Assembly: GCA_037189525.1 (NCBI GenBank)
Contig: JBBCJC010000002.1
Span: 1,312,001 to 1,376,000 of the forward strand
Length of the DNA: 64,000 nt
From: Gemmatimonadales bacterium
GTDB lineage: Bacteria; Gemmatimonadota; Gemmatimonadetes; Gemmatimonadales; GWC2-71-9
Direction of reading: 5' to 3'
Shown here: one piece after another, positions 22,941 to 40,734 of the stretch
How positions within the stretch are numbered: position 1 is the first letter of the stretch
Layout of the letters: each line of letters starts with the position of its first letter
Made by a program: the position numbers and the translations under genes
The notes under the pieces: model-generated
The model's input: the letters and a program-made list of their open reading frames with translations, nothing else
Databases searched by the model: none
Told to the model about the DNA's origin: nothing

Positions 22941-22984
22941 ACGAAACCCCACCGAGCATAACGTTCGGTGGGGTTTCGTTTTTT
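22941..22984. terminator. Bidirectional intrinsic terminator (original tRNA-Pro downstream terminator)
   Basis: acgaaaccccaccgagc/gttcggtggggtttcgt hairpin with T-tracts on both strands. Confidence 0.8.
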
Positions 22985-23032
22985 GATCAGTCGGGGCGCC
23001 GGGATTTGAATCCGGGACCTCTTGCTCCCGAA
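22984..23032. repeat. att direct repeat (displaced 3' half of tRNA-Pro)
   Basis: tgatcagtcggggcgccgggatttgaa(t/c)ccgggacctcttgctcccgaa, 48/49 identical to 40647-40695. Confidence 0.95.
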
Positions 23033-23135
23033 TCGCAGCCGCCCGCTGATGGGCACCAGCCACCACCGAAAGATCGTTGATTTTCAACCACTTACGCCAG
23101 TGGACGCCGATCAGCAACAACCAGAAACGGGGGGA

Positions 23136-23156
23136 TTTGTTACCCGGAACGTTACC
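23136..23156. repeat. Putative integrase arm-type site
   Basis: TTTGTTACCCGGAACGTTACC, identical to 40558-40578. Confidence 0.7.
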
Positions 23157-23395
23157 CGGCGCTGACCACAGGTCATCCCAAACGACCGGCGGTCGTCCCA
23201 TAAGTGCGGGTTTAAGCTAGGGGTGAGAGTGTGGCATCTGTCTTGAGGAGATTCGCCGGAGGCGAACTGGCCGATCTGGCGGTCGACTCCATGTCAAGGT
23301 ACCTTCCCCCCCGCGATCGGGGCGCGGCCCCTTGATGTCTGGGAAGTCCTTGGTGGACAAACCCTTCCGATTACCGGATTCTCAATGATCCACCC

Positions 23396-24064
23396 ATGGT
23401 AGTTGAATCCGCGGTGATACCTGGCCAGTACCCGGCCGAGCACGTTCGCCGGGTCGAGGTATGGGCTTCTGCATCGATTGATGGCGAAACACACGAGCGA
23501 ATGTCGCCCATGTTGGACGACGACGGCGAGGTATTTGCTCCAATCATGATCAATGTATTGGGCGGTACAGTCGACGGAGCCGCTACGGTACGGTCGCTGT
23601 CTGACGAGCACGGACGAACGGTTCACAGGGCGCACATACGGCTGTGGTTTGAACCGTCTGAGCCTCTCGACCTTGGTGACTCCTTCCTTTCGAAGCAGGC
23701 CGAGCGGTGGAACAATGTGACGAGCGAGCTGGATTCGGCCTTCGCTGACGCATCGTGGTCGGTCTCGGCGATCTTTGGCTTGGAAACCGCGGCAGAGCCA
23801 ACGGTTGTTGAGCTTCCGATCGCTCTCGACGCGCGAACAACAAAGAGCTTCTCGGAAATTAGGGGGCTGCGGCTTGTCCAGCTTACCAGCGATCGATCGT
23901 CTGAGCTGTACTCGGTAGTAGTCGACCAGCAACCGCGAGGACTGTCTCTTCAGGTCGCGTCGACCATGCGGTCGAACGTCAGCTCGGGGATCCTAGCCAA
24001 GGCCATGCGTGAGGGTTGGAGAATCGCGCGCTTTGCGGTGCCTAGCTTGCCGGAGGCGGAATGA
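23396..24064 (+). CDS. Hypothetical protein (first gene of HEPN operon)
   Basis: 222-aa ORF with ATGA overlap to the next gene. Confidence 0.65.
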   Translation: MVVESAVIPGQYPAEHVRRVEVWASASIDGETHERMSPMLDDDGEVFAPIMINVLGGTVDGAATVRSLSDEHGRTVHRAHIRLWFEPSEPLDLGDSFLSKQAERWNNVTSELDSAFADASWSVSAIFGLETAAEPTVVELPIALDARTTKSFSEIRGLRLVQLTSDRSSELYSVVVDQQPRGLSLQVASTMRSNVSSGILAKAMREGWRIARFAVPSLPEAE

Positions 24065-24654
24065 CTCACGTTATCGATAGTCGCGGCGTTTGGCACAGAC
24101 TCGACGAAATCGAGTTCCAACGGCCAGGGCGCCATGACTCGGTCGAACTCGTTCAGCAGAGTCGGCGATACCTGGAACGTCAGGCCCAAGCAGACATTCG
24201 GTCCGCGACTCAGGATTCTATGTCGTCCCTCTTTGTTGCTCTCATTCAGGGAGCGGCGAAGAAGGGGGCGTCCGCGGTTCGGGCCGACCTGCTCGCTGAG
24301 GAGCTCAAGGACGCGAAGGCAACCATTGATCGGTTACTGGCCTTCGTTCCAGGACGGATGCCAACGCCAGACGTCGAGCGCCTCCGGACCATTTCCAGCG
24401 AGCTCATGCAAGCGGCCAAAGACGCCTTCGGACCTTTGGGTTGTAAGCAGTACAACGTGGTTGCGCTGCCCGAGGCGGATGACGATTGCGAGGCGGCCGT
24501 CCGGATCGTTCTGGACGTTCAGCTGACGCCAGAAGCGGTCGCGCAGTTCGGGGAGCACGCCTTCGCCGTTCACCGACGCTTTGTTGAGCTTACGACACCG
24601 ACCGAACGTCGTGCGATTCACCTTTCCGTGGGCTCGATTTCCGACCCGCTATGA
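24061..24654 (+). CDS. Hypothetical protein, putative HEPN partner/antitoxin
   Basis: GGAGG RBS, ATGA overlaps on both sides. Confidence 0.65.
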   Translation: MTHVIDSRGVWHRLDEIEFQRPGRHDSVELVQQSRRYLERQAQADIRSATQDSMSSLFVALIQGAAKKGASAVRADLLAEELKDAKATIDRLLAFVPGRMPTPDVERLRTISSELMQAAKDAFGPLGCKQYNVVALPEADDDCEAAVRIVLDVQLTPEAVAQFGEHAFAVHRRFVELTTPTERRAIHLSVGSISDPL

Positions 24655-25061
24655 ACCCCGGTGAGAACCTCCCTCTCGCCAAGCTGCTTGCGAAGCCGTT
24701 GTCAGGCTGTTTGGACGAGGCGGCTTGGCGAGGAGCCGTAGGTCGTGCTTACTACGCCGCTTTTTGCGCCTCCAGAGATGCACTTGCCGCTGCGTCGATA
24801 GAGGTTCCGAGGACTAGAGATGCCCACGGGGATGTAGCGCAAAAGCTAGGGGAGTCGAGCGACTCGGTCGTTGCGGCTTGTGGCTCGATGCTTAATGACA
24901 TTCGACGCGACCGCCGAGCGGCGGACTACGACGTAGGCCGTCAGCTGCCGAAGCGTCATCACGAGTGGAGGACGATAGCTGCACTTTCCATAGGTAAGGC
25001 GGAACAGGTCGTCGAAGGACTGGCGAAGATTTCATCGGCCGAACTTAAGCGCAGCTTCTAG
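24651..25061 (+). CDS. HEPN domain protein (UPF0332-like)
   Basis: AVGRAYYAAF, conserved H (DAHGDV), RRDRRAADYD. Confidence 0.85.
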   Translation: MNPGENLPLAKLLAKPLSGCLDEAAWRGAVGRAYYAAFCASRDALAAASIEVPRTRDAHGDVAQKLGESSDSVVAACGSMLNDIRRDRRAADYDVGRQLPKRHHEWRTIAALSIGKAEQVVEGLAKISSAELKRSF

Positions 25062-25105
25062 GGTTTGCCCCCCCCATTGACCTTCCCGCCCCATCGTGGG
25101 GGCAT

Positions 25106-25448
25106 CTACACCTTCCGTGAGCACATGCTGGCCGCCGTCCTCAGTGGCCGGGACCGCCTCCGCCGCCTATACCCCTGCTGGACGAACTCGATCTCCCGCC
25201 CGATCTCGGCATCGGTGGGCCACCCCAAGTCCTCGCTCTTGTTCGAGTTCATGTCGAATGCTCCGAGTAGGCTGAGGCGCCAGGTGCCGTCATAGCCCTT
25301 AGTGGCAGGTCCAGCCGACGAGTCATGGTCGACCTCGGCCGCGGACCATGTCCTCGAGCTGGGCGACCGTCAGGCGCATCCGCCGGGCAGCTTCCGCCAG
25401 GGTGTAGTAGTTCGCGTCGGTGGGGAATTGGAACCGCCAGTTCGGCAT
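25106..25448 (-). pseudogene. Frameshifted HTH_17/Xis-like gene
   Basis: MPNWRFQFPTDANYYTLAEAARRMRLTVAQLEDMVRG stops at 25323; another frame continues ATKGYDGTWRLS... Confidence 0.45.
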
Positions 25449-25632
25449 TGGGCCAAGATAGCAGGCCCGGCATTCCTAGTGTCGCGATTCCTGAGAGCGC
25501 ATGGATGGCCGACCTACGGTTGGGCCCAGTACGCCCCTGAGCGTCCGTAGCCCGCGGATCGGCCAGCGGGCGAGCCCCCTTGTTCTTAACACCGGCTCCG
25601 GCCTCACGCTTATCAGACGTGCGGCCTCAGTC

Positions 25633-25872
25633 TCAATCGGGCACTTGCCCCCGTTGCGCTCGATAAGCAGCGACAAAGTCGGCTGCCAATTGGCTGGGCA
25701 GCCTGGTGCCTAGCCGATGCGTGAACTCCCAGACAAATTGGGAACCATCTGGGTTTGGAATACCAACCGACATGACGGCGGCCGTGCTCACCGTCATCAG
25801 GTTGGGATCCGGCCCGCGTTCACTGAGCTCCCACTGAATCGCGGCAACGACCTTCGCGAATTCCTCACTCAT
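25633..25872 (-). CDS. Hypothetical protein
   Basis: 79 aa, ATGA-coupled to the upstream gene. Confidence 0.5.
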   Translation of the reverse strand: MSEEFAKVVAAIQWELSERGPDPNLMTVSTAAVMSVGIPNPDGSQFVWEFTHRLGTRLPSQLAADFVAAYRAQRGQVPD

Positions 25873-26957
25873 TGTGTCGAGTTCTCCGTGTCGGTGTGAT
25901 CAGGACCGGGTTCGTTGGCGAAGCTATCGCCGTCAACGTCCTGTGGTACTTCACCACTGGTCCGACGTTGCCTCGGTTTCGAGGTTAGTCGATGCACAGC
26001 GGCCTTGAGTTCTCCATCGTCGCGAATCGCGAGGTCCATCCGCTCAACGAGGTCGACCAGGACAAGGCGGAAGTCGGTCGCATTGGCCAAGAATTCCTCG
26101 TCTGTGCCGTCGTGAAGATCCGCGCTAATTGCTTGGTGAAGGAGCTGCAGAGGACTGTGCCCATTGATGCGCAGGATCTCGGGAATCGCCGATTTTATCG
26201 AAGCGATGGCGTTGGCGAACTGCGTCTGACCCTTAGCCTCTGTTAGTTCGGCAACGAGGTCGTCGTGACCCGGAAGTACGGATGCGACCTTGATCATCCT
26301 GTCGAAGATTCTGTCCTTTTGCCGTTCGACGACCCGGCGGTAGTAGGCGGCCGCGCCCAGTCCGAATCCCTCCTGCTCCGCTCGATACCCAAGCAGGAAC
26401 AGCTTTCGATCCTTCTGGAGGAGTCGCTCCACTCTGGCGGGAGGCTTCTGACCGTACTGCGGCCACTCACCGATTTTCCAGATGCGAAGGGAGAGGTCTT
26501 CCTTTGCGGCGTCATGTGGCCGCGCATGTACCTCGAGCCGATTGCCTGACTGCGATTTCCAGGCGTGGTACTTGGGTGGCGGGGTGCATCCAAGAGCAAA
26601 CGTCTTATGGCTTTTGTTGCAGTTCTGGCATCGGTACGACGCGATACCGAACCATGGGAAATCCAATAGGCATTCTCCTACCGTTTGCCCGAGGTGAGAG
26701 ATAGGGCCAAACCATCGGACTCCATCACACTCAGGACAGTGCAGCTGAATGCGGGGAAGGGTAACAACAACGAGGGCTGCTCCCGAGGTGGCGGGCGACA
26801 CCGACGGGGCCACGGTCCACCTCAGCAGCGAGATTGCCGTGCCGGGTGGCATCCTCCCCAAGAGAATGGCGATGTCCATGTCTGTCGCCGGAGTACTTTC
26901 CGAGGTCAACGAAGGGTCGGGCCCTTGGCCTTCATTCGTCATTGTTGCTCTCCGCAA
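25869..26957 (-). CDS. Zn-ribbon + DUF4145/HEPN-like protein
   Basis: CPEC and CQNC pairs, KIGEWP, GLGAAAYYRRVVE, LHQAISADLH. Confidence 0.65.
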   Translation of the reverse strand: MRRATMTNEGQGPDPSLTSESTPATDMDIAILLGRMPPGTAISLLRWTVAPSVSPATSGAALVVVTLPRIQLHCPECDGVRWFGPISHLGQTVGECLLDFPWFGIASYRCQNCNKSHKTFALGCTPPPKYHAWKSQSGNRLEVHARPHDAAKEDLSLRIWKIGEWPQYGQKPPARVERLLQKDRKLFLLGYRAEQEGFGLGAAAYYRRVVERQKDRIFDRMIKVASVLPGHDDLVAELTEAKGQTQFANAIASIKSAIPEILRINGHSPLQLLHQAISADLHDGTDEEFLANATDFRLVLVDLVERMDLAIRDDGELKAAVHRLTSKPRQRRTSGEVPQDVDGDSFANEPGPDHTDTENSTQ

Positions 26958-27030
26958 AAATGAGCAGTGTTGCGGTGTGCTGGGATGAACGGGCAGACTC
27001 AGCGCCGCCGATTGCGCGAATTTCGTCGAA

Positions 27031-27963
27031 CTAATCTCCGAGCTGCGCCTCGGTCGGGAGTGTCGCGCGAATGATTACGGTTAGCTCATCGCCAGCCTTG
27101 TCGAGGTTCGCAGGTTCCCAAATCACGGTCAGCTGGTGGCTGGTGTCGAAGTGGATATCGTTAAAAACGTCGCGACGGCATGTGTAGATGACTGGAAGCC
27201 CAACGCCTTCAGCGAAGCCTGCCTCCCAATAGGCGCCGCGATTTCCATGGGATAGATCAGCAATAAGGAACCGGCTCCGCCGGATCTCCACTCGTAGCCG
27301 GTCGTCGATCAGCCCGGCTTCGGGTTCGTCGTCGAGGCGGCGGAGATCAAAGCCGGCGCGCAAGACGGCAGGTTTGAAGGTGCTGTGGACAACGTTGTCC
27401 AGTTCCTCGTCTCCGAAGGGCATTGCCATGAAGGCGCGCTTACTAGATCTGAACGTTGAGTTCCGTAGTTGGCGGACGCTGTCCCAGCCCTTGAGCGTCA
27501 ATCCGACATCTCCCCCACTTCGTGGATACACCTTTCCATGGAGGAGCCCGCTATTGACTAACTCTCCAACGAGGTAACCGACACTCTCCGTTGTTGCACA
27601 CCCTACCAGGGCCTGGTGGGGAGGTGCATGAACAGTGATCCGATCTCCAACTGCCTCCGTGTGGTCGCTTACGAGGAAAAGGATGTTGGCTGCTTGCTCG
27701 TCAGGCGATGGAAGTGAGACGTTCTGGACAAGGCTCTCCCACAGGTGGGTCGTCAGCTTGGGTACTGTCCTGTTTTTAAGCCCGCAGAGGCGGCGGATCC
27801 CGTAGCTAAGGGCTGGGCTTCCCTTGGCGGTGCCCTTCATGAAGAGTGCAACCAGGGATCCTGTCATCTCGTAAGTACCGCACCTTGGGCACTCATAGCG
27901 CGTGACATGGCCGTTTGCCTCCGTCCGGCACTCAAGCGAACATACATGGCAGGACTCGTTCAC
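27031..27963 (-). CDS. Zn-ribbon + wHTH + nucleoside 2-deoxyribosyltransferase/TIR-like domain protein
   Basis: CHVC/CPRC, LTLKGW, AFMAMPF, IRRSRFLIADLSHGNRGAYWEAGFA, PVIYTC, HFD. Confidence 0.8.
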   Translation of the reverse strand: MNESCHVCSLECRTEANGHVTRYECPRCGTYEMTGSLVALFMKGTAKGSPALSYGIRRLCGLKNRTVPKLTTHLWESLVQNVSLPSPDEQAANILFLVSDHTEAVGDRITVHAPPHQALVGCATTESVGYLVGELVNSGLLHGKVYPRSGGDVGLTLKGWDSVRQLRNSTFRSSKRAFMAMPFGDEELDNVVHSTFKPAVLRAGFDLRRLDDEPEAGLIDDRLRVEIRRSRFLIADLSHGNRGAYWEAGFAEGVGLPVIYTCRRDVFNDIHFDTSHQLTVIWEPANLDKAGDELTVIIRATLPTEAQLGD

Positions 27964-28087
27964 CGGTTTTAGCTCCTTGTTTGAGGCCCGCTCTGTTGAC
28001 TAATGAGGTCAATCTGTTCGCTATGAAGAGCTCGACCTTAACGCCCCCGGTGAGGAGGAGAGTGGAATCGCTCTACGGCTTCAGCTC

Positions 28088-28852
28088 TCAGCTTCTCTTG
28101 TCGCGCGCACCATCGATTCTGATCCAGTCATGAAACCGCCGTCCCAGATCGTTGATACGGACCATCTTGTTGGTCGATTTGGGATCTTGCGTTGAGGCAT
28201 CGAAGATCGTGATCAGGCCAAGGGCTTGGAGACGCAGCAGCCGAGCTCCGTAGAGTTCGTTTGGCGGGTACTTGAGTCGATCGAGGCTTGTCTCGGATCG
28301 ATAGCCCCAGAACATGTCTAGGCTGAGGGATCTCGGGAGGTCGCTTACGTTGGCTAAGGCCTCGATGTGCTCGTACTCGAGTTGGTCGAGAATTATGGCC
28401 ATCGTTCGGCCTTCATCCCGGTCGGCGGGTGCTTCGTGTCGAAGGCCATTTGCAAGGAGGGCGCCGAACGCCTCACGCTTCTTCTCGGCGCGGGCTCGCA
28501 AAGCCATGGGAAGCACCGTCAGAACGAGTTCACCCCAATCCGCTACATCCGGACGAGCCTCGGGCTCGATCGCCATCCGGTCGATGGCGTCGACGAGCCA
28601 CCAGAGGATGTGCTCTAGTCGCTCTCGGTAGCGCTGTTGACCGAACTCGCCTAACCATGGAGCAACCGCGTCGACGAGCAGCGTTAACCCAGTACTCGTC
28701 GGGGAAACCGCAGCAATGCTCGCGAGAACGCTGGCAATTCGTCCATCGCTCGTCCCTTCGAGCTCGACGAGTAGCTCGCGGATGCGTTCAGTCGGGGTTT
28801 CCGGGGGCAACCTGGCCGGGAACGGGCCATCGGGCGTACCGGGACTGCTCAC
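28088..28852 (-). CDS. Hypothetical protein, Abi-alpha/DUF4393-like
   Basis: ILDQLEYEHIEAL, LLRLQALGLI, INDLGRRFHDWI pattern; GTGA-coupled to the repressor. Confidence 0.55.
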   Translation of the reverse strand: MSSPGTPDGPFPARLPPETPTERIRELLVELEGTSDGRIASVLASIAAVSPTSTGLTLLVDAVAPWLGEFGQQRYRERLEHILWWLVDAIDRMAIEPEARPDVADWGELVLTVLPMALRARAEKKREAFGALLANGLRHEAPADRDEGRTMAIILDQLEYEHIEALANVSDLPRSLSLDMFWGYRSETSLDRLKYPPNELYGARLLRLQALGLITIFDASTQDPKSTNKMVRINDLGRRFHDWIRIDGARDKRS

Positions 28853-29073
28853 CCCTTCTTCCCCTTCTTCGGTTCCCGCACGATCAGGTCGCCCGGCTCG
28901 ACGCCGAGGGCCGCGGCGAGTCGTTCGATTAGGTCGAGCTCGATTCGCTTTGCCCGGTTGTTCTCGAGGTCGCTAATCGTTGCTTGGCGGGTGCTCGCCT
29001 CGTCGGCTAGGCGGACCTGCGACCAGCCTTTGGCTTCACGTAGTTCCCGGAGGCGGAGGCGAATTGGTGACAT
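28849..29073 (-). CDS. XRE/Cro-CI family HTH repressor
   Basis: LRELREAKGWSQVRLADEASTRQATISDLENN...LAAALGVEPGDL. Confidence 0.92.
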   Translation of the reverse strand: MSPIRLRLRELREAKGWSQVRLADEASTRQATISDLENNRAKRIELDLIERLAAALGVEPGDLIVREPKKGKKG

Positions 29074-29078
29074 ACTAC

Positions 29079-29257: not shown

Positions 29258-29632
29258 GTGATTCTGCAGCAAATCGCATTTCTTGGGTCGCTTTCGAGGA
29301 CCCGGCTGGTGCTAGTCGATCTGACGAAGCAGCCCGTCACCATTGATGAGCTCCGCCAAGCCGCTGCCGCCATCCGATCAGCTCGAGGTGAAATCCTCTC
29401 CGTGCCCGATATCGTTGGGTGCGAAGTCTTGATGCGCATGCGTTCCGAGGGGGTCGGGCAAGTCCTTCCGCTGGTTGATCGCATGCTGGCGACGGCGGTT
29501 CAACTGGCGCCGACGCCAAAGAGAAGGCCTCAACTACGCCGTCTCCGGGACTTGGTTGGCCGGGCGATTGAGTTTGGTCTTTGCACTGAGGAAGCCGAGG
29601 CGCAGGAGTTCCTGCGAAGCCGTCATGGCTAA
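29258..29632 (+). CDS. Hypothetical protein
   Basis: GGAGG RBS before GTG. Confidence 0.6.
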   Translation: MILQQIAFLGSLSRTRLVLVDLTKQPVTIDELRQAAAAIRSARGEILSVPDIVGCEVLMRMRSEGVGQVLPLVDRMLATAVQLAPTPKRRPQLRRLRDLVGRAIEFGLCTEEAEAQEFLRSRHG

Positions 29633-29903
29633 GGCAAAGCAGTCTTCGCAGGTCCAGCGCATCTATCGGATCGATCGCCCCATACCTGGGGTCGTTGGCG
29701 GTTACGACGACTACGTCGTCTTCGATCCGAAGGGTAAGGTCACCTTTACTATCTGTGTTGCCGTCGAGCGAGACCTTGAACCGGTTATTCGAGCGGCCAT
29801 CGCCAGGGGGGCATTCTCGGAAGTGATAGTAGATGACCAGCAAGAGCCTGCAGCGTCGCCGACCGCTTCGAAGAAGCCACGTATCCTTCAGATAGTTCGC
29901 TGA
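29625..29903 (+). CDS. Hypothetical protein
   Basis: ATG at 29625 overlapping the upstream stop; 92 aa. Confidence 0.55.
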   Translation: MAKAKQSSQVQRIYRIDRPIPGVVGGYDDYVVFDPKGKVTFTICVAVERDLEPVIRAAIARGAFSEVIVDDQQEPAASPTASKKPRILQIVR

Positions 29904-29918
29904 CCCGTGATGCCGCTG

Positions 29919-30122: not shown

Positions 30123-31205
30123 CTAACGTGGTATACTCGTTCGCTTCCGAGATTCGGCCTTCAGGATCGTATTTCGGGATCGCCTGCATGCCTCGCTGCA
30201 AAGGGTTGCTTGACCACGCTTAGGAGCACGACTTCTCGAGATGAAGCGGCCGCATTGGTCACAGGCCGCGGAACTTCCGATTCCCCCAACGATTTGAAGC
30301 AGGCCGTACCCGATTGCTGCCCAAGGACCTCCAGTGTAGGCAATACGAAGCTTCGTTGGCTTGTCTTTGGTCATCGCAAGGACAGGGTAGCAACGTCCAG
30401 CTTCCATCCACCAATTGACGAAGGGTACGAGAATTTCCGTTACTTGAAGGTGGCTGCGCAACTCTGTCATGCCGGAAGTCAGCAACTTCTCCATCGTCAG
30501 GTCCATCGCGTTGGTAGTTCGTGGCGAATCCTTTCCGAAGGCGATTGCCCGCCAACGATCGATGCCTGCCTCTCCAACGGATTCTGGTATTCCATCGACG
30601 TAGACCAGGTCCCTCTCCTTTGCGACCCATCGTCCCAAGAACCGCCCCCAATGAGCTTCCAAAGGCGCAAGGTCCTTGGCGATCGCCCGGCGGGCTTGCG
30701 TGCTCAGGGTTGTATGCTCGCGCAGGTACTCCGCTCCTCGAACGACGGCCCAAGCAAGAGCAGCATAGCGGTAGTACGCGGAGCATGGTTCCCCAGTAAT
30801 CTCAGTTATGGTGCCGTCCTTACCCTCCACTCCTTTGAGCTGTTGATGCTGAGCCCAGCCGGCCGGCCACTCGTTGTCGTCCAAACCCAAGTATCCGTAT
30901 CGGCTTACGAACGAGCGGATTGTCTCACTTTGGCCGCCGTGGATGCCGAGAAAGTCGCGAAGAATGTTCCTGGTTGTAACCGACTGGCTGCTCCTGTCGA
31001 TCAGCACACGCTGCAAGTCCTCAATCGACGGTGCGTCCGGATGTCCGGATGCATCGAAATTCATCGAACGATATCGAAGATGAACGCGCTGCTCCCTTTG
31101 TCGGAGCTCGGCTCCAATTGGGGGGCCGGCTGCCCCTCGTACGACAATGGAGGCTCCGATATCGATGCCCATGCATCGCTTCAGTATCTGCTTTCGTGTT
31201 GGCAT
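30123..31205 (-). CDS. Protein with C-terminal CGNR-like zinc finger (putative regulator)
   Basis: FVSRYGYLG, CDQCGRF...LCSEACRRSR. Confidence 0.65.
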   Translation of the reverse strand: MPTRKQILKRCMGIDIGASIVVRGAAGPPIGAELRQREQRVHLRYRSMNFDASGHPDAPSIEDLQRVLIDRSSQSVTTRNILRDFLGIHGGQSETIRSFVSRYGYLGLDDNEWPAGWAQHQQLKGVEGKDGTITEITGEPCSAYYRYAALAWAVVRGAEYLREHTTLSTQARRAIAKDLAPLEAHWGRFLGRWVAKERDLVYVDGIPESVGEAGIDRWRAIAFGKDSPRTTNAMDLTMEKLLTSGMTELRSHLQVTEILVPFVNWWMEAGRCYPVLAMTKDKPTKLRIAYTGGPWAAIGYGLLQIVGGIGSSAACDQCGRFISRSRAPKRGQATLCSEACRRSRNTILKAESRKRTSIPR

Positions 31206-31301: not shown

Positions 31302-31487
31302 ATGGTGGAATTGCGATTTATCCCGGCGCCGGAAGCGGCAGTAGCGGCGAGCATCTCCCGTGAACGGATCATCCGCCTGGTTCAGCGGGGCGAAATCAAT
31401 GGGCGGCTCGTCAGTGGCAGATGGCAGGTCGCCGAGGGCGAGGTCGAGCGGTTGCGTCAGCGCGCTGCCCAGGCTGCCGACACATGA
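31302..31487 (+). CDS. HTH_17 excisionase/AlpA-like protein
   Basis: PEAAVAASISRERIIRLVQRGEINGRLVSGRWQV. Confidence 0.8.
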   Translation: MVELRFIPAPEAAVAASISRERIIRLVQRGEINGRLVSGRWQVAEGEVERLRQRAAQAADT

Positions 31488-32092
31488 AATCCCGCGCCTC
31501 AGTTGCCGAATCGACCGTGGTACATACAACTGCCGCGCCGCCTAGGCGGGTCGATTTCGTCCGGGTTTTCGATGCGGCGCGTGCGATTGGTGTTCCATTC
31601 GATGGAGGTCCGGGTGAGGACTTGACCATACGTCGAAACTGGGATGTGATCGACCTTGCCGGGATGGCGGTTGTGCGACGCGCCGTTCTGGTCGAGCGCG
31701 GCCTCGAGCCCGAAACACGCCTCATTCTCTCAATCGATGAAAGTTGGTTGTCGCCGGTTCCGGATGACTTGGTTGCGCGCCAAACACCCGGTCCAGTCGG
31801 TCGCGACGTCACCTTCGGGGGCGGCGCAAGCGTTCCTCGGGGGACGATCATCGTCGACCGTGACGGATTTTTTGAGCCTCTGGCAGTCGCAGATGACCTC
31901 GCGTTTGTTCGCGGCGTCCTCCTCCGAGAGCTGCCGTCACTGGAATCATTGCGGCCGGCGACTGTCATCGTTCGGGGGGGCGTAAACCGTCATGCGCTCC
32001 GTTGGCCCGCCGAGATCGAGCCTGATGCCGTCGTCGAGGCGCTACGCCTTGCGTCAATCACTGTCCACTCCGCTACCGAGGACCAAAAGTGA
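31484..32092 (+). CDS. Head decoration protein (lambda gpD-like) with N-terminal extension
   Basis: C-terminal VTFGGGASVPRGTII...VRGVLLREL...ATVIVRGGVNRHALRWP...VEALRLASITV resembles the gpD/HDPD family. Confidence 0.6.
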   Translation: MKSRASVAESTVVHTTAAPPRRVDFVRVFDAARAIGVPFDGGPGEDLTIRRNWDVIDLAGMAVVRRAVLVERGLEPETRLILSIDESWLSPVPDDLVARQTPGPVGRDVTFGGGASVPRGTIIVDRDGFFEPLAVADDLAFVRGVLLRELPSLESLRPATVIVRGGVNRHALRWPAEIEPDAVVEALRLASITVHSATEDQK

Positions 32093-32658
32093 AAAACCAC
32101 GCTGAGCCGATCAAGAAACTGATCGACAAAGAGAAGCTCCATATCACCAAGCTCCGAGCGGAGCAAGCAGAGCGCCGAGCGCAGTGGGGCCAGTTCGTCG
32201 ATTCCGGACGGCCGTCGTCAGAGGCCGGCTCCCTGAAGACGCAAATGGATGTTGTCGACGAGCGACTTATCAAGGCGATGGCCCGGCTCTCAGAGCTCGA
32301 AGCGCAGCTCGAACAGGCGGAAGCCGAGGATCTTCACGAACGGCGGCTGATCGAAATCAAGGGCGCGGGTGCGCTCATTCAAGCCGTGACGGCGCGGCGA
32401 GCGGAGGTCGGCCGACTGGCGGGACAGCTGGCGGCTGCGCTGGGCGCCGAGGATGCGGCACATCAGCAGTTGCTAGACCTAGCGGATCGGGTCGGTACCT
32501 GGGATGCGGAGCGGGCGGCCAGCGGGCACGCGTCGGACACCTTCTACCTGGTGTTCAGGGACGTTGTGCCTGACCGCGCCCTGCGCCGCGGAGAATTCGA
32601 TCCGTCCGAATACCGGCTTGAGACGATCGATGGTGATCGCCTCTGGCCGACGCGATGA
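32089..32658 (+). CDS. Coiled-coil hypothetical protein
   Basis: Long heptad-rich helices; coupled on both sides. Confidence 0.65.
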   Translation: MKNHAEPIKKLIDKEKLHITKLRAEQAERRAQWGQFVDSGRPSSEAGSLKTQMDVVDERLIKAMARLSELEAQLEQAEAEDLHERRLIEIKGAGALIQAVTARRAEVGRLAGQLAAALGAEDAAHQQLLDLADRVGTWDAERAASGHASDTFYLVFRDVVPDRALRRGEFDPSEYRLETIDGDRLWPTR

Positions 32659-33107
32659 ACATCGCGGCGTGGCTTGACGCCCATTCCCGGCCGTGGACCG
32701 TCCGGTTCCCACGGCCGGCGAAGGTGACCATCCGTCGCGGTCGGGTCCCGCAGCCGTATCTGGAATACGCAGCCCGGGATTTGTCCGCGGTCGAAGTGGC
32801 CGGCTTTCTCGAGCAGTACCAAGCGATTCCATCAGCGGACGAGGCACGCCGCATCAGGCAGCTTCGCGCCTTCCTGCGGCGCCTTTTCCCGGGGCTGTTC
32901 TGGTGGACGCGGCCGGATCCGGTGGAGCTCATCTTGGCGCTACCGAAGCCGGGCCAGGATGCCGTACTCAACGATTTTTTCGCGTACCGGGCGGGCCAAT
33001 CCCGTCCGGCGATATCGACAGCGCCGACACCGGCGAGCCCCTCGCGCCCATTCCCCCCGCCTATGGCGACGGTCCCGACAGCGGTGAGGTCCGGCTCGGA
33101 TGGTTGA
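32655..33107 (+). CDS. Putative tail assembly chaperone (gpG-like)
   Basis: Lies directly upstream of the TMP; in-frame T TTT TTC slippery heptamer at 32975-32981. Confidence 0.6.
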   Translation: MNIAAWLDAHSRPWTVRFPRPAKVTIRRGRVPQPYLEYAARDLSAVEVAGFLEQYQAIPSADEARRIRQLRAFLRRLFPGLFWWTRPDPVELILALPKPGQDAVLNDFFAYRAGQSRPAISTAPTPASPSRPFPPPMATVPTAVRSGSDG

Positions 33108-33334
33108 TCGCGGCCGCCGCGCGCTGGTGGGGACCGGATTGGTTCCGTCACCCTCTCTATCGGACGCCCGATCGGATCGTTCCGTGGCGGATCTTCGTGG
33201 CCTCGCTGCCGCTGATGCGGGCACTCGAGGCCCGCGAACAACTGGCGCGGGTGACCGCCTCGGCATTTATGCACCAAGTAGATCCGACGGCCGCCGTGCG
33301 CCGGCTCGAGCGGATCGCTTACGGGCAGGAGTGA
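32981..33334 (+). CDS. -1 frameshift extension (gpT-like) of the tail assembly chaperone
   Basis: Open -1 frame after the slippery site, ending 8 bp before the TMP start. Confidence 0.6.
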   Translation, partial: RVPGGPIPSGDIDSADTGEPLAPIPPAYGDGPDSGEVRLGWLIAAAARWWGPDWFRHPLYRTPDRIVPWRIFVASLPLMRALEAREQLARVTASAFMHQVDPTAAVRRLERIAYGQE

Positions 33335-33342
33335 GGTAGCCC

Positions 33343-36234: not shown

Positions 36235-36614
36235 AGGTTGGGGAAGACGCGGATATCGCGCAGGCGGCCGCCGCGGCCGAGCGGAAACGGATCCTGTCGA
36301 TTCAGCAGCTGGCAATGCCAGGTGCGGACGACATCATCGCCGCGGCGATCGCCGATCCGACCGTGACGGCTGGGGCGACGGCACTCAAAATCCTGCAGAC
36401 GCAGAACGCCGGCCGATTGCGAAAGCTGCGCGCGTTGCAGCGCGACGTTGAGGTCGACCCGACCCCCCGGTCGCTGCCCTCGAGTGAGTTCGATGGTCGT
36501 ACGGCGGCGGGGCGCTCCTTGCTGGGGACCGTGAAGCGCGTCCAGGCGGAGCAGGAAGCCATAGCGGCGGCTCAGGCGGATCTGGGTCGCATAGGGCAGC
36601 TGGGAGGGGGTTGA
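36231..36614 (+). CDS. Stand-alone Nu3-like capsid scaffolding protein
   Basis: AAAAERKRILSIQQLAMPGADDIIAAAIADPTVTAGATALKIL resembles the C-terminal scaffold region of S49 head-maturation proteases. Confidence 0.6.
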   Translation: MKVGEDADIAQAAAAAERKRILSIQQLAMPGADDIIAAAIADPTVTAGATALKILQTQNAGRLRKLRALQRDVEVDPTPRSLPSSEFDGRTAAGRSLLGTVKRVQAEQEAIAAAQADLGRIGQLGGG

Positions 36615-37165
36615 TGCGACCGAGGGAGCACCGGCATGCACGTTGTCGCTTGAGCGAAGGGGCCCGGCTCTCGGCCGTCCTCGACTATTCCAACGCGGTC
36701 GCGAGTCTCACGATCGCAATCCCGCCGAGCACTTTTGATCGGTTGCGGTACGCGATTCGGAGCCGATCAACACCGAGCGAGCTCCTCGAGCTGGTGCGCG
36801 TCACCTGGTTGTTCCACGCGTCACCTGGTTGTTCCATCGGATGCGGCGCGCGACATATCGGCGGCGCACGAGCCGATCGAAACCCTGGCGCGGAGCAAGA
36901 TGGCGTGTTCGGATGGGCGGTGTGGGTTCGTGGGGACGACTGGTCGGGGGTAGCTCACCTGGAGCCCGGTCCCGCGAGGCAACAGGGCTTCCTGCGGAAT
37001 CCGCCAGTGCGGTGGCCCGCCCGCACCTGTAGTACGGGAGTAACGCAGCTGGTAGCTCTGGCCACTACTGCGTTTGTCGCAATGAGAAAAGGCGCACACG
37101 GCCGAAGATCCGTGAGCGCCTCACTCCTCAGCGAGAAAGAGGTCTCGCCGTGCCATCGAAGCTAG
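36614..37165 (+). CDS. Hypothetical protein, possibly frameshifted by a 20-bp duplication
   Basis: Coupled to the upstream stop; contains a tandem repeat at 36797-36836. Confidence 0.4.
   Translation: MRPREHRHARCRLSEGARLSAVLDYSNAVASLTIAIPPSTFDRLRYAIRSRSTPSELLELVRVTWLFHASPGCSIGCGARHIGGARADRNPGAEQDGVFGWAVWVRGDDWSGVAHLEPGPARQQGFLRNPPVRWPARTCSTGVTQLVALATTAFVAMRKGAHGRRSVSASLLSEKEVSPCHRS
36797..36836. repeat. Perfect 20-bp tandem duplication
   Basis: CGCGTCACCTGGTTGTTCCA x2. Confidence 0.95.
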
Positions 37166-37256
37166 CAGGAACCCTCATCCATCGGCAACCGTTACGGACT
37201 TCGGCCGACGTGCGCATTGAACGGCTCGATGATGGGCGGATCCGAGGGCATTCAGC

Positions 37257-38234
37257 GTGATGCTTGCCCTTCACCAGGATCCGCGGCCCTCGAGGTTTCA
37301 GCCGATGACGGTCGAGGAGCTTGCCCGACTGCCGAAACCGACATGGGATGTTGAGGGGCTTTTCGTGACCGGTGGCCTTTCGGTTCTGTTCAGCGAACCA
37401 GGCGGGGGGAAGACATTGCTCGCGCTCGACCTGGCCCTCTCGATGGCTGCAGGTCACGATGAGTGGTTCGGACGACGCCTCCGCAGTGGTTCAGTAGTAT
37501 ACGCGGCTGGCGAGGGCCTGCGCAGTCTCTCTCCGCGCATCGAGGCGTGGCGTTCGCGCGCTCCAGGTGCCTTTCACCTACGGTTTCTGGCCGTTCCAGA
37601 TGTCCCGAATCTGGGTAGCCCCGCCGAGTGCACTGAATTCGTAACCGAGCTGGCAAACAGGGGCGAAACATCGCCAGCGTTGTTGGTGATTGATACCTTG
37701 GCCAGGGCCACCGCCGGCCGTGACGAGAACGACGCGCTTGAAATGGGGGTTTCGGTGGAGGGGCTCGAATACCTCGCGCGCGAGCTCGGGTGCGGTATCC
37801 TGGTTCTCCATCACTCGGGATGGTCAAAGGGCCGGGAACGGGGCTCGAGTGCCCTGCGCGCGGCCTGCGACACGGTCGCCGGCCTTGAGCGGGATGGCGA
37901 CGATTTCGTTCTGCGAGTTGTCAAGCAGCGCGACGGAGAAGTCGGGGTTGCCATGCGGCTTCGATTATCAAAAGCCGCTCCGTCGGTTGTCTTCGATGTC
38001 GTCGAGGGTGATGTGACGGATAGTGGTCCTGATCTTACACCGCGGCAGCGCGACGTGGTTCGATCGTTGATCGAACTCAATCGAGCAGCAACGTTCTCAG
38101 AACTCGTCGATCATACCGGGGCTTCGAAGAGCACCATATCCGGTGCGGTGAACCTACTGTCTCGCTGCGGCTTGGTACGTAAATCTAATGATCGGTATGA
38201 GTTAACCGAGGCGGGATTGAATGCAGTTCGCTGA
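37257..38234 (+). CDS. AAA_25 / RepA-like SF4 helicase with C-terminal wHTH
   Basis: Walker A SEPGGGKT, YAAGEG, Walker B LLVIDTLAR, LVLHHSG, RGSSAL, KQRDG. Confidence 0.88.
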   Translation: MMLALHQDPRPSRFQPMTVEELARLPKPTWDVEGLFVTGGLSVLFSEPGGGKTLLALDLALSMAAGHDEWFGRRLRSGSVVYAAGEGLRSLSPRIEAWRSRAPGAFHLRFLAVPDVPNLGSPAECTEFVTELANRGETSPALLVIDTLARATAGRDENDALEMGVSVEGLEYLARELGCGILVLHHSGWSKGRERGSSALRAACDTVAGLERDGDDFVLRVVKQRDGEVGVAMRLRLSKAAPSVVFDVVEGDVTDSGPDLTPRQRDVVRSLIELNRAATFSELVDHTGASKSTISGAVNLLSRCGLVRKSNDRYELTEAGLNAVR

Positions 38235-38446
38235 GTTCGGTCCGGTTCGATTCGGGTTCGATCGAACCTTCTCTGGACGGAGGTTGGTTCGGTTCGATGG
38301 TTCGGGGTCTAAAGACCCCTCGAACCAATCGAACCTGGGCCTAGCGACCAACCTCCGCGGGGGGATATGCACGGCAGGCGCGTTGCTTATGTCACTTCTT
38401 CTGGTTCGGTTCGGTTCGATATTGGTTCGATCGAACTCTGCGAACC
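38226..38446. repeat. Iteron-like (G)GTTCG/CGAAC(C) array, putative replication origin
   Basis: About 16 GTTCG/CGAAC copies in both orientations; central inverted repeat at ~38291-38335. Confidence 0.7.
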
Positions 38447-38498
38447 TGGACGCGCCGCATGATCGGGACGGGGACAGTCGGGTCGCTCGGAAGCGAAC

Positions 38499-38590
38499 GG
38501 GTCCTCCCAGAGGATCGGCCGCGCTAGCGGGTGACGCAGCCCCCCGGCACTGTCTGTATACCGGATTTTCTAGGGGACTTTCCGTTTCCA
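38499..38590 (+). other. Lambda-like cos packaging site (cosQ-cosN-cosB start)
   Basis: GGGTCCT at 38499-38505, 23-nt spacer, GGGTGACGCAGC at 38529-38540, then ATTTTC and TTTCCGTT; lies just upstream of the Nu1-like gene. Confidence 0.7.
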
Positions 38591-38615
38591 CTCAATCGCA
38601 GGGTTTTGAGGCTTT

Positions 38616-38873
38616 GTGACGGCAAAACAGCAGGAAATTCGTGGACCGTTGCTGGCGCGATTGCTCGGTGTTACGACGCGCACCCTGCATAACCTCCGTA
38701 CCCGGGGAATGCCGCATCGACGGGACGGCCGCGAGGTGTGGTACCCGGTGCCGACTTGCCTGGCCTGGTATTTCCGCTCCGGAGATGGCGCGGCTGCGGC
38801 GCCGGCGCCCACCGTTCGACCGGAAATTCGCCCCATTCCGAAGGCCACCTCGTTTTCGGTGGGAGCCGAATAA
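38616..38873 (+). CDS. Truncated terminase-small-subunit (Nu1) DNA-binding domain, Rpp-like
   Basis: LARLLGVTTRTLHNLRTRGMP...EVWYPVPTCLAWY parallels the lambda Nu1 wHTH; only 85 aa. Confidence 0.7.
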   Translation: MTAKQQEIRGPLLARLLGVTTRTLHNLRTRGMPHRRDGREVWYPVPTCLAWYFRSGDGAAAAPAPTVRPEIRPIPKATSFSVGAE

Positions 38874-39266
38874 GTGGTTCAGCTCGAGCAGCTGCGCGCG
38901 TTGGCAAATGCGCTGCCGGCGGGGACGGCGTTGCCGGTTCCGCGGGAGTGGGTGCTCGAGCTGCTTGACCGGATTGACGGCCAGGTACCGGCGATGGTGT
39001 CGACGTCGGCCGATCTCACGGTTTCGGACTTGGCGGGGCGGTTCAACCGATCGCCGTCGACGGTACGCTGGTGGATCGAATGCGGCCGCTTCGTCGGGGC
39101 CTATCGGCTGCGGGGCAGGGAATGGCGGGTTCCGCCGGCGGTGCTGCAGGCCTTCGAAGAGGCGGAGCGCTCGGCAGCACCGCGAGGTCCGGCAAATCCC
39201 GATCCGACACCGCGACGGTCACGGGGGAAGGTTGTAGACCTGGGCGACTGGCGGAAGGTAGGTTAA
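38874..39266 (+). CDS. Excisionase-like HTH_17 protein
   Basis: LTVSDLAGRFNRSPSTVRWWIECG...GAYRLRGREWRVP; adjacent to the integrase. Confidence 0.8.
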   Translation: MVQLEQLRALANALPAGTALPVPREWVLELLDRIDGQVPAMVSTSADLTVSDLAGRFNRSPSTVRWWIECGRFVGAYRLRGREWRVPPAVLQAFEEAERSAAPRGPANPDPTPRRSRGKVVDLGDWRKVG

Positions 39267-39270
39267 GGCG

Positions 39271-40734
39271 ATGATGACGCCTCGGAAGCGACAGTCGCGG
39301 GTCTACTGGCGAGTGCGAAGCGGCACCCGCCGCGCGTACGGGGATTTCCGCGACTATGCCGACGTCGGGGGAAAGCTCGAGCCGTTGATTCCGATTGGGG
39401 AACGGTTTGCAACGACGGATCCGGATCTCGCGCTGCGGCTGGCGCTGCGCCGTTTGGAAGAGCTCGAGGCAGCCCGGAAACGGCGAGCGATCACCGGGAA
39501 GGCCGATGTGATCACGCTGGCCGAGTATGCCCGCGACTATCTGATCGCCAAAAGGAAAACGGGGAATGTGACGACCGGCTGGCTGGCCGCGTGTCAGAAG
39601 TTCCTTGAGCGCGCTGTGGCCTTCCTGGGTGCTGATCGACCACTCGATGAGGTCCGGGTTTCGGATGTGCGCGCCTGGTCGGCCCATCTCCTGACGCATG
39701 TCGAGCTGCCGCGCACGGGGCCGAATGCCCCGAAGAACAAGGCGCCCAAGTCGCTGTCGCCGGACAGCGTTAGGCGGCACCTGTTCACCCTGTCGAACCT
39801 ATACCGGTTTGCGCAGGAGGCAGAGCACGTGCCTCCTGGTTTCAATCCGGTTGCCTCGTTCGCGGACAAGCCGCCCAAGCCGCAGCGGTCGGCGGCCTGG
39901 TTGGAAGCGCCCGATGTCGCGTTGCTGCTGGAGAGTGCCCGCACCGTACAAACCGTGGCCACGCCATTCGCGGAGGGCTTCGATGCCGGCTTTGTTCATC
40001 CTCTCCTCGCGACGCTTGCGCTGACGGGTGGCCGCCGTGGGGAAGTGCTGGGGCTAGAGCTCGATGATGTGAGCCTCGACCGCCGGACGATCACCTTCCG
40101 AGCCAATCGGTGGCGTGATCGTCTCAAAACGGGGGCGTCCTGGCGCACGGTGCCGCTGTGGCCGCAGCTCGAGGGGATTCTCCGCCCCTACCTGTTCGGC
40201 CCGCGCCTGCTGCGGGGTGGTTCGCTGCTGTTCCCGTCGTTCGTCGCTGGCCGCGAGCAGCCGCTGCGGGAGATTCGGCCGATGCTCGACCGGGTGGCGA
40301 TGCGAGCTGGCTGGAAGGCCCGTGAGATCAACGCCCGGATGTTCCGTCACGCCTACTGCGCAGCTCGCCTCCAGACCCTGGACCACGGGGCGCCGGTCAG
40401 CGTGTACACTGTGAGCCGCGAGCTGGGCCACGGGTCAACGGATATGGTTGAGAAAGTGTATTCGCACTTGGGGACCGTGCGGCATCGGTCGGAGGAGGTT
40501 GAGTTCCGAATCGAGCAACACTTCGAGGTCCTGGGCCAGCGGCTCGAAGGCCTGCCGTTTGTTACCCGGAACGTTACCGGCGAACACTCGTTGACCGCAA
40601 AAGATGAAGCCCCGCCGAGCATAACGTTCGACGAGGCTTCACTTTATGATCAGTCGGGGCGCCGGGATTTGAACCCGGGACCTCTTGCTCCCGAAGCAAG
40701 CGCGCTACCAGGCTGCGCTACGCCCCGTCACTGA
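39271..40734 (+). CDS. Tyrosine recombinase/integrase
   Basis: TGGRRGEVLGL (R), LKT, RMFRH, ELGH, VYSH (Y); the ORF runs through the att site and antisense tRNA-Pro. Confidence 0.93.
   Translation: MMTPRKRQSRVYWRVRSGTRRAYGDFRDYADVGGKLEPLIPIGERFATTDPDLALRLALRRLEELEAARKRRAITGKADVITLAEYARDYLIAKRKTGNVTTGWLAACQKFLERAVAFLGADRPLDEVRVSDVRAWSAHLLTHVELPRTGPNAPKNKAPKSLSPDSVRRHLFTLSNLYRFAQEAEHVPPGFNPVASFADKPPKPQRSAAWLEAPDVALLLESARTVQTVATPFAEGFDAGFVHPLLATLALTGGRRGEVLGLELDDVSLDRRTITFRANRWRDRLKTGASWRTVPLWPQLEGILRPYLFGPRLLRGGSLLFPSFVAGREQPLREIRPMLDRVAMRAGWKAREINARMFRHAYCAARLQTLDHGAPVSVYTVSRELGHGSTDMVEKVYSHLGTVRHRSEEVEFRIEQHFEVLGQRLEGLPFVTRNVTGEHSLTAKDEAPPSITFDEASLYDQSGRRDLNPGPLAPEASALPGCATPRH
40558..40578. 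repeat. Putative integrase arm-type site (within int)
   Basis: Identical to 23136-23156. Confidence 0.7.
40606..40640 (-). terminator. Element-supplied terminator for the tRNA operon
   Basis: Hairpin homologous to 22943-22977; pairs via G-U only on the minus-strand RNA; followed by AUCUUUU. Confidence 0.65.
40647..40695. repeat. att direct repeat overlapping intact tRNA-Pro
   Basis: 48/49 identical to 22984-23032. Confidence 0.95.
40654..40727 (-). tRNA. tRNA-Pro(CGG)
   Basis: CGGGGCG acceptor stem, CTTGC-TT-CGG-GA-GCAAG. Confidence 0.95.

Follow-up and report, generated by a model that had tools for sequence, protein, structure and literature searches.

The 64,000-nucleotide stretch of Gemmatimonadales DNA analysed here (assembly GCA_037189525.1, contig JBBCJC010000002.1, positions 1,312,001 to 1,376,000 of the forward strand; hereafter the window, with coordinates counted from its first letter) contains a 17,663-bp island of a soil bacterium, flanked by direct repeats that are imperfect and take in the 3' half of tRNA-Pro(CGG). 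Besides genes for integration, control and replication, the island carries an operon encoding a probable head decoration protein of the lambda gpD type, an orphan coiled-coil protein, a tail assembly chaperone of the G/GT type, a tape measure protein (TMP) and the C-terminal domain of a Nu3-like scaffold. An earlier, sequence-only reading of the window had proposed a new type of phage satellite that remodels the head, tail and packaging of a lambda-like helper. The explanation that we rank first, tentatively and at somewhat less than an even chance, is a phage satellite that depends on a siphovirus with a lambda-type head as its helper, of which the island would be a plausible single example. 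It takes this place because of clean gene junctions, an intact TMP gene, a conserved frameshift, the lack of leftover phage gene fragments, a replication module of its own and the published cases of two other satellite groups, the PLEs and EPIPs.

The structural operon

The tail genes were identified by homology to phage modules that occur in the same bacterial family, in different genera, the most informative being those of genomes G150 and G177. The chaperone G is 35-42% identical to the G protein of the G177 phage (E 7e-18 at 35%), and the -1-frame open reading frame (ORF) of G177 matches both parts of the island chaperone (E 4.9e-10); the -1 extension by itself is 36% identical (E 9e-6). 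The motif C CCC CCG at 33,053-33,059 within the chaperone gene is a candidate slippery site. A +1 ORF at 33100-33339, previously taken for the T part, matches no homologue, and the conserved -1 frame ending at 33334 is the true extension. The TMP gene follows directly behind that of the chaperone. Its product and the G177 phage TMP are collinear (35% identity for residues 2-399, 28% for 372-817); identity to the TMP of the G150 phage, which itself matches phrog_1533 at E 9e-51, is 31%. Over its C-terminal half the island TMP shares 48% identity with P0003, a 1,089-aa protein with PF10145, and the identities run to the last residue. These homologies uphold the original assignment of both tail genes. 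The Pfam scan gave no match to PF10145 itself in the island TMP, and phrog_5062 was matched only at E 1.7e-3. The closest phage TMP (G177:C299:3830-6418) contains an in-frame TAG between its two matched halves, which may mean that the gene is broken, that the assembly is in error or that the codon is read through.

Over 98 aa, the product of the last operon gene shares 38% identity (E 2e-12) with the 435-aa protease/scaffold protein of the G150 phage, at residues 334-430 of the latter; the gene for that protein, a phrog_53 match, lies between portal and D, as lambda C/nu3 does. This relationship to the C-terminal part of a protease/scaffold confirms that the ORF is a Nu3-like scaffold piece; with lambda Nu3 itself it shares a 29-residue motif only (E 0.026). 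We also predicted the complex of this domain with the gpE-type capsid proteins of G150 and G177, which, coming from phages of other genera, serve as stand-ins. The complex scored 0.37 and the best control 0.01, with at least 64% of contacts agreeing between runs and a partner pLDDT (the model's confidence measure) of at least 64; of 157 solved complexes 116 reach the mark applied, as do 2 of 215 mismatched pairs, and at scores of 0.60 or below it is reached by only 18 of the 157 solved complexes and by both of the mismatches that pass. The model thus lends weak support to a contact between the Nu3-like domain and a gpE-type capsid protein.

The second gene of the operon encodes a probable gpD-like decoration protein, in which a match to phrog_49 follows an N-terminal extension. 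Its one relative, P0005, is 41% identical (E 3.4e-22), and both proteins start with MKSRA, which places the start of the gene at 31484 and not, as first annotated, at 31421. The gene is barely related to D of the G150 phage. Between it and the chaperone gene stands an orphan, for which the AlphaFold2 (AF2) model shows a coiled-coil hairpin. Foldseek searches of this model against BFVD and PDB returned no matches at E <= 0.001, and a VIA-wide fold search listed common coiled-coil hairpins only, with Z up to 11. An atlas lead to the P4 protein Psu (0.90) was dropped, since the fold searches list generic coiled coils only; Pfam Psu matched none of the island ORFs at E up to 0.1. The coiled-coil ORF is all-helical and therefore has neither a tube nor a capsid fold.

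The six genes follow one another in the order small helix-turn-helix (HTH) protein, gpD-like protein, coiled-coil hairpin, chaperone G/GT, TMP and Nu3-like ORF. Their junctions are, in order, ATGA, GTGA, ATGA, an 8-nt gap and ATGA, so that four are 4-nt start/stop overlaps, in agreement with the tight coupling seen from the start. An AT-rich region of 90 bp precedes the HTH gene, and the operon lies upstream of, and co-oriented with, the replication-excision genes. The G+C content at third codon positions is 0.63 in the D-like gene and 0.73-0.80 in the coiled-coil, G, TMP and Nu3-like genes, with a host mean of ~0.77; two composition classes of genes are joined seamlessly in one operon. The PADLOC and NCBIfam collections gave no matches for the operon proteins.

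This order differs both from that of lambda (C/nu3, D, E) and from that of the G150 module (portal, protease/scaffold, D, E, ..., G/GT, TMP): the Nu3-like piece is placed after the TMP gene, and the orphan coiled-coil gene occupies the capsid-to-tube position. Every departure from the phage order coincides with a clean gene boundary. The gene order of the island is not the product of deletion alone from known phage modules. We argue that the clean junctions, the intact 2.9-kb TMP frame, the conserved frameshift extension, the non-phage order, the lack of fragments and the island's own replication module together indicate an operon that was assembled and kept by selection; the initial argument that a scrambled yet coupled order speaks against simple decay is strengthened by these observations.

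Scans with Pfam and PHROGs over 22 ORFs recognised no gene for major capsid, portal, large terminase (TerL), connector, tail tube, tail tip or lysis. When 31 proteins of three related phage modules were searched by tblastn, the island matched with G, GT, TMP and the scaffold C-domain only, without other fragments, and the rest of the genome with nothing but a repeat-domain protein. Both lines of evidence support the list of absences drawn up beforehand, and also the proposal that the island keeps only a few structural parts, namely the chaperone, the TMP, the scaffold C-domain and the probable decoration protein.

A discrete integrative island at tRNA-Pro

The flanking direct repeat is 101 nt long and 87% identical between its two copies (22932-23032 and 40595-40695), which are spaced 17,663 bp apart. 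Its best part, 22984-23032 versus 40647-40695 (49 nt), has a single mismatch and gives the coordinates of the unit as originally read. The repeat takes in 43 nt of the tRNA, at its 3' end, together with the terminator hairpin that follows; a terminator-like hairpin lies at 22940-22980, inside the attL-side copy. The intact tRNA-Pro(cgg) is the first of six tRNA genes on the minus strand at 40,653-41,511. In two other species of the genus, G255 and G354, the site is empty and the conserved left-flank gene lies ~100 bp from tRNA-Pro. Inserts of 1.7, 3.3 and 19.4 kb occupy it in G200, G299 and G048, respectively; the tRNA-Pro site is an integration hot spot. The repeats, the intact tRNA and the empty sites establish that the unit is an insertion bounded by att repeats, a discrete integrative island, as had been claimed.

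A 21-nt sequence, TTTGTTACCCGGAACGTTACC, is repeated exactly near the two ends of the island, and the 19.4-kb sibling island of G048 has a version of it with 2 mismatches close to its distal end, which fits an arm site of the integrase. The G+C content, ~65% over the window, falls to ~59% at 22-32 kb. Between the conserved flank gene and the left repeat lies ~1 kb of low-G+C DNA (21905-22931; 58.8%), where two same-genus genomes have ~100 bp; this DNA may be the remainder of an earlier insertion at the hot spot. An Rfam scan of the region found tRNAs only, and promoter and terminator scans performed no better than chance.

Family matches were obtained for the integrase, the excisionase (Xis), the repressor and the helicase (Table 1). 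Words of the type GGTTCGAT, allowing at most one mismatch, match 97 times in the window, a count reached by none of 100 shuffled windows, and 13 of these matches fall inside 38244-38437 (~195 bp), directly behind the helicase gene; the cluster is a probable iteron origin. With an integrase, Xis, an XRE repressor facing divergent early genes, and a helicase-winged HTH protein with iterons, the island should be able to integrate, excise, be repressed and probably replicate alone, and this part of the sequence-only reading stands. A small mobile element with its own integration, excision and replication functions and without capsid, portal, large terminase and lysis genes has general traits of a satellite.

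Other parts of the island are less readily assigned. The stretch between the Nu3-like and helicase genes contains CGCGTCACCTGGTTGTTCCA, a perfect 20-nt tandem duplication (two copies, 36797-36836), near which the assembled contigs of the public run X1 break (36,562/36,594). Two left-arm proteins, matching phrog_25239 and phrog_16139, have N-terminal Cys-pair motifs, and the latter (27031-27963) gave a weak match to a TIR effector (E 9.5e-4); the left-arm genes are candidate anti-phage or defence cargo. Elsewhere in the same genome (G000), a second AAA_25 helicase, 27% identical to that of the island, is encoded at G000:C8:3272-4060 on a 15.6-kb contig of low G+C (59.9%), which may be another small mobile element or plasmid.

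Table 1. Features of the island and of its ends, in window coordinates
Feature	Position	Strand	Evidence and remarks
attL-side repeat: displaced tRNA-Pro 3' part and downstream terminator hairpin	22932..23032	.	101-nt repeat
21-nt exact repeat, candidate integrase arm-type site, distal arm	23136..23156	+	exact twin at 40558-40578
Three coupled accessory ORFs, 222/197/136 aa	23396..25061	+	third: phrog_5176 E 4.3e-9; second: phrog_1053 E 1.3e-4; no Pfam/PADLOC match
Accessory genes, 79/362/310/254 aa, downstream of and co-oriented with the repressor	25633..28852	-	phrog_25239 E 7.1e-41; phrog_16139 E 1.2e-21
XRE/cI-type repressor, 74 aa	28849-29073	-	HTH_3 E 5.5e-13; phrog_3 (transcriptional repressor) E 1.8e-13; 62% identical to G048 counterpart
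Divergent early ORF(s) facing the repressor	29258..29903	+	coding-like codon-position GC; no Pfam/PHROG match
~360-aa protein with C-terminal Cys-rich motif	30123..31205	-	ORF open to 31529; no family match; unnamed clusters only in the atlas
HTH protein (AlpA/excisionase-type), 61 aa, first operon gene	31302..31487	+	HTH_17 E 7.7e-4, below cut-off; ATGA overlap with next gene
gpD-like (head decoration) protein, probable, 202 aa, ~90-aa N-terminal extension	31484..32092	+	phrog_49 E 3.6e-8 over residues 92-200
Coiled-coil hairpin protein, 189 aa, orphan	32089..32658	+	AF2 pLDDT 83; helices 5-39 and 44-144; small C-terminal part
Tail assembly chaperone G (32655-33107) with -1 frame extension T (to 33334)	32655..33334	+	homology to G177 phage G/GT
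Tape measure protein, 963 aa	33343..36234	+	homology to G177, G150 and P0003 TMPs
Nu3-like scaffold C-domain, stand-alone ORF, 127 aa	36231..36614	+	ATGA overlap with TMP stop
Non-coding-like 640-bp stretch, no convincing ORF	36615..37256	.	ORF 36611-37165 has codon-position GC unlike coding
RepA-like AAA_25 helicase with C-terminal winged HTH	37257-38234	+	AAA_25 E 9.1e-35; MarR_2 E 1.9e-7; phrog_906 E 6.8e-37
Iteron array in both orientations, probable replication origin	38235..38450	.	word counts, repeats
MerR/Nu1-type winged HTH protein, 85 aa	38616..38873	+	phrog_57 (TerS) E 2.1e-7, profile positions 11-68/199; Pfam MerR only, E 0.025
Excisionase (Xis), 130 aa	38874-39266	+	HTH_17 E 6.4e-7; phrog_66, phrog_1840; 55% identical to G048 counterpart
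Tyrosine integrase	39271-40734	+	ORF continues through attR and tRNA; Phage_integrase E 4.5e-8; phrog_1 E 1.3e-38; 83% identical to G048 integrase, same tRNA
Candidate arm site, second 21-nt copy, int-proximal	40558..40578	+	exact repeat
attR-side repeat: gives the intact tRNA-Pro(cgg) its 3' part	40595..40695	.	101-nt repeat
tRNA-Pro(cgg), intact	40653-40727	-	Rfam 68.7 bits

Relatives, helper and alternative explanations

The TMP was searched in 200 other genomes of the bacterial family and matched in four, of which the three strongest were annotated in their context (the fourth and weakest is in G039). All three lie in ordinary phage structural modules. That of G150 (contig C117) comprises portal, protease/scaffold, D, gpE-type capsid, head closure, a 341-aa ORF in tube position without family match, G/GT, TMP and Dit; that of G177 (C299) comprises capsid, the same 341-aa ORF, G/GT and TMP; and that of G101 (C177) runs from an HK97-type capsid through to TMP. 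The capsids of G150 and G177 are both Phage_cap_E. The nearest relatives of the chaperone, TMP and scaffold domain are found in lambda-like siphovirus modules in other genera, and the phage parts of the island, as judged from these homologies, derive from lambda-type-head siphoviruses infecting this family. The sequence-only reading had conceded that it would fail if the homologous loci were full prophages and the region a simple deletion product of them: full phages they are, but simple deletion does not account for the Nu3-like piece after the TMP, the orphan coiled-coil gene and the divergent D.

Several results nevertheless weigh against a satellite, starting with this location of the TMP homologues in ordinary phages. 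The coiled-coil protein has no credible match in 400 other family genomes, where nine partial matches (E 1e-4 to 8.6e-3) lie inside longer or broken frames, and the D-like profile matched in 0 of 400. Among 400 other genomes of the phylum the TMP matched in three, none of them closer than G177. The GenBank phages (50,697 records) gave no match, and pattern scans for relatives of the TMP and the D-like protein found none in viral contigs, one-genome-per-species contigs and JGI metagenomes; an alignment of five TMP rows proved too divergent for such scans. In a word-index protein search, the D-like and coiled-coil ORFs retrieved nothing but the window's own proteins, and the TMP retrieved P0003; an exhaustive HMMER search with the D-like protein returned P0005 only, plus a weak repeat match to P0006. 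The only relatives are P0005, a D-like protein on contigs of 1.3-4 kb, and P0003, half a TMP. As far as these data go, the island is a single example, and its gene set, expected to recur in related genomes, was found nowhere else in the family and phylum genomes, GenBank phages and viral, genome and metagenome contigs. Such an outcome had been named in advance as one that would tell against the proposal.

The sibling island in G048, of the same genus and at the same tRNA-Pro (G048:C35, ~71,700-91,100), shares int, xis and the repressor with the island and carries zero structural genes; this makes the common backbone a general chassis for islands. The G048 cargo differs entirely and can for the most part not be assigned; it includes an apparent 1,417-aa ORF lacking Pfam and PHROG matches. 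The genomes compared by integrase similarity include the unpublished G187, G134 and G068, on which no claim rests.

The identity of the decoration protein is also open to objection. Pfam HDPD (PF02924) scores 25.3 bits with the ORF and 26.4 bits in a six-frame search of the genome, below the cut-off of 29.1; hhalign of the gpD-like pair with lambda D and G150 D gave no support (probability 0.4); the AF2 model (pLDDT 35) is unusable, leaving the fold without confirmation; and P0005 does not match phrog_49. The gpD-like assignment, which has the phrog_49 match and the HDPD score below cut-off behind it, is weaker than first stated, and we call it probable. No cos or pac site was identified in the island, and the cos-like site proposed before was not confirmed. 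The 85-aa winged HTH protein, which had been called Nu1-like, does match a small terminase (TerS) PHROG with its winged HTH part; the part of Nu1 that binds gpA, at the C-terminus, is absent, and no Pfam Phage_Nu1 or terminase small-subunit match was obtained. Xis matches phrog_57 too (E 4.8e-3), so that this match is not discriminating, and from its sequence the protein is a candidate packaging protein, regulator or second excisionase. A primase was not found in the island by the Pfam and PHROGs scans.

The co-resident lambda-like prophage that was expected as a helper did not come to light. The genome of the island's host, 98.1% complete, gave no match to Phage_capsid, Phage_cap_E, TerL_ATPase, Phage_portal or GpA_ATPase in a profile search; neither it nor 21 other genomes of the genus contains a lambda-like helper, and Phage_cap_E is absent from all 22 genus genomes. 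Phages with Phage_cap_E heads do infect the bacterial family, as G150 and G177 show. The sole Terminase_6N of the genome is on C14, its only phage-like contig. C14 (42,830 bp; G+C 60.5% versus 65.7% for the chromosome) resembles a complete temperate podovirus-like phage, with integrase, Erf-type recombinase, cI-like repressor, Terminase_6N TerL, portal (phrog_1216), scaffold, major head protein (phrog_1328), lysins and an Ant-like anti-repressor. We rejected it as a helper: it is podovirus-like and has no TMP or tube genes. The only public run with island DNA is X1, probably the source sample, available as assembled contigs, and no RNA run is listed that contains the island. The proposed check for excision junctions found no circle (attP) or empty-site (attB) joint in the X1 contigs, which cannot show rare forms, and the missing junctions are therefore not evidence against excision. 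The depth in X1 is equal over the island (~99-118) and its left flank (104).

Many of these observations would suit a cryptic, rearranged prophage remnant, that is, a lambda-like siphovirus at tRNA-Pro that lost most of its late genes by deletion and by recombination with other islands, with ORFs that are intact because the loss is recent and not because they function. Homologues in complete phage modules of the family, a gene set conserved nowhere else and the failure to find a helper are all as expected, a hot spot with inserts of several sizes in other species should generate mosaics, and the composition does vary between parts of the island. We nonetheless consider this explanation unlikely, although it is a serious one. 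Deletion alone cannot place the Nu3-like piece after the TMP; the three novel junctions (D-like with coiled-coil, coiled-coil with G, TMP with Nu3-like) are exact start/stop overlaps and not truncated or fused ORFs; nothing is left of capsid, portal, connector, tube or Dit; the 2.9-kb TMP frame and the -1 frame extension of the chaperone have survived intact; and the orphan gene sits exactly at the capsid-to-tube position.

An integrative defence island is a further and distinctly less probable explanation, in which the chaperone, TMP, scaffold domain and decoration-like protein act as decoys that poison head or tail assembly in infecting lambda-like siphoviruses, and the island spreads by other means than packaging. 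Interference with tail assembly through satellite and prophage genes has been documented for Tai systems (PMC11364771) and for Rta of PLE11 (PMC12987554); the island has further candidate defence cargo, including the weak TIR match, the sibling in G048 carries other, non-structural cargo on the same chassis, and neither a packaging signal nor TerS could be shown. A decoy needs less than a full-length TMP with its matching G/GT and frameshift, the operon is placed and oriented relative to the replication-excision genes as in a lytic-phase programme, 17.7 kb with its own origin suit a packaged replicon, and no known defence family was recognised among the operon proteins. Finally, an autonomous temperate phage of small size, with a capsid, portal and terminase that have diverged beyond recognition, is a very improbable reading of the island. 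The phages of this phylum are poorly sampled, no GenBank phage matches, and at least nine ORFs are without family assignment; the 2.9-kb TMP gene and ~5 kb of mobility genes, however, leave too little room in 17.7 kb. No terminase-type ATPase was matched, the largest unassigned protein has ~360-468 aa and a Cys-rich tail, the PHROGs scan found no lysis gene, and the all-helical fold of the coiled-coil ORF suits neither tube nor capsid.

Known satellites and a proposed mechanism

Phage-inducible chromosomal islands (PICIs) integrate site-specifically; their repressor is accompanied by divergent regulators, their helicase gene adjoins an iteron origin, a small AlpA-like HTH gene stands at the head of an operon, and structural and lysis genes are lacking. 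The island resembles them, including the Gram-negative cos-type, in size class, integrase, XRE repressor, helicase with iterons and small AlpA-like HTH. It differs in that no primase domain, TerS, Ppi, Rpp or Cpm homologue was detected, and in that its int ends a rightward operon whereas PICI int is divergent at the left end. To our knowledge, no PICI has a gpD-like or Nu3-like gene. Capsid-forming PICIs have their own major capsid, portal, protease and connector genes, none of which was detected here. P4 redirects capsid size through the all-helical Sid, has its own decoration protein Psu, is packaged through the cos of its helper and has no tail genes. P4-like satellites resemble the scheme proposed below in having their own decoration protein and an all-helical size determinant; the island differs in its tail genes and in that no homology to Psu, Sid, Delta and alpha-primase was found. 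The lambda-like prophages of G150 and G177 share with the island homologous G/GT, TMP and protease/scaffold C-domain and are of the gpE/gpD head type, but they keep the canonical order from portal to Dit; the island has five or six of those functions, differently ordered, and no others. The collinear late genes and the truncated or fused joint ORFs of defective lambda-like prophages are absent from the island. Psu is described as a capsid building block in one report (PMC11718236).

The nearest parallels are satellites that bring their own tail genes. The EPIPs of Mycolicibacterium aichiense carry a TMP, and altered tail length and smaller heads have been reported for them (PMC12822802). Like the island, they are small and have a TMP with most tail genes absent; unlike it, they measure ~11 kb and have a serine integrase, TerS, a head-to-tail adaptor and a stopper (PMC12822802), none of which occurs in the island, where the integrase is of the tyrosine type. 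The preprint is inconsistent on one point, listing the major capsid protein among conserved genes and also stating that capsid proteins are lacking (PMC12822802). In the Vibrio cholerae PLEs, according to a 2026 study, a TMP and tail assembly chaperone (TAC), together with a baseplate hub, all satellite-encoded, build chimeric tails on the helper, which was shown experimentally (PMC12987554); the precedent invoked in the sequence-only reading is thus real. According to the same study, PLE1, PLE4 and PLE11 are like the island in being integrative, in having no capsid or tail building blocks and in encoding their own TAC and TMP, and they have a separate capsid-size factor, as we propose for the island (PMC12987554). 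They differ in their helper, the lytic myovirus ICP1, and in their baseplate hub, whereas the search for Dit, hub or tip homologues in the island was negative. Their TcaP is described as an external scaffold (PMC10945586), whereas the island has a Nu3-like internal-scaffold domain and a gpD-like protein.

Based on the above data, we propose how the island would act as a helper-dependent satellite. Infection by a helper, or its induction, would lead to derepression, excision and replication from the iterons. The island chaperone and TMP would take the place of those of the helper in tail assembly and give chimeric tails, as in the Vibrio PLEs. The Nu3-like domain could bind the gpE-type capsid protein of the helper and steer it into a smaller shell suited to ~18 kb, with the coiled-coil protein possibly serving as an alternative scaffold alongside it, and the island's decoration protein may then stabilise this shell. 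For the recognition of island DNA in packaging, the 85-aa winged HTH protein is a candidate and no more. The genes that share the repressor's orientation may represent accessory or defence cargo expressed in lysogeny.

To call this a new type of satellite was an overstatement, because satellites with TMP and TAC genes are already published and no second example of the island was found. What would be new, if real, is the combination of TMP and chaperone with a Nu3-like scaffold domain and a decoration-like protein, directed at a siphovirus with a lambda-type head, and in a new phylum. The fuller claim, that the island holds a complete size-and-specificity kit without building blocks, with the scaffold domain, a coiled-coil partner and the decoration protein serving a smaller head and the chaperone and TMP serving the tail, re-tools both head and tail of a lambda-type siphovirus and is the first satellite described in Gemmatimonadota, we regard as possible but doubtful. 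We know of no described phage satellite in this phylum.

Should the island prove to be a rearranged remnant, it would be an ordinary island at a tRNA hot spot. If the satellite explanation is true, the substitution of the tail ruler would not be peculiar to the cholera-phage system and would also occur in soil bacteria, against siphoviruses. A single element would then join tail substitution with head remodelling by a borrowed scaffold domain and its own decoration protein, and would serve as a compact natural system in which to test what sets capsid size and tail length. The biology of phage satellites in a phylum with almost no cultured phages would gain a first point of access as well.

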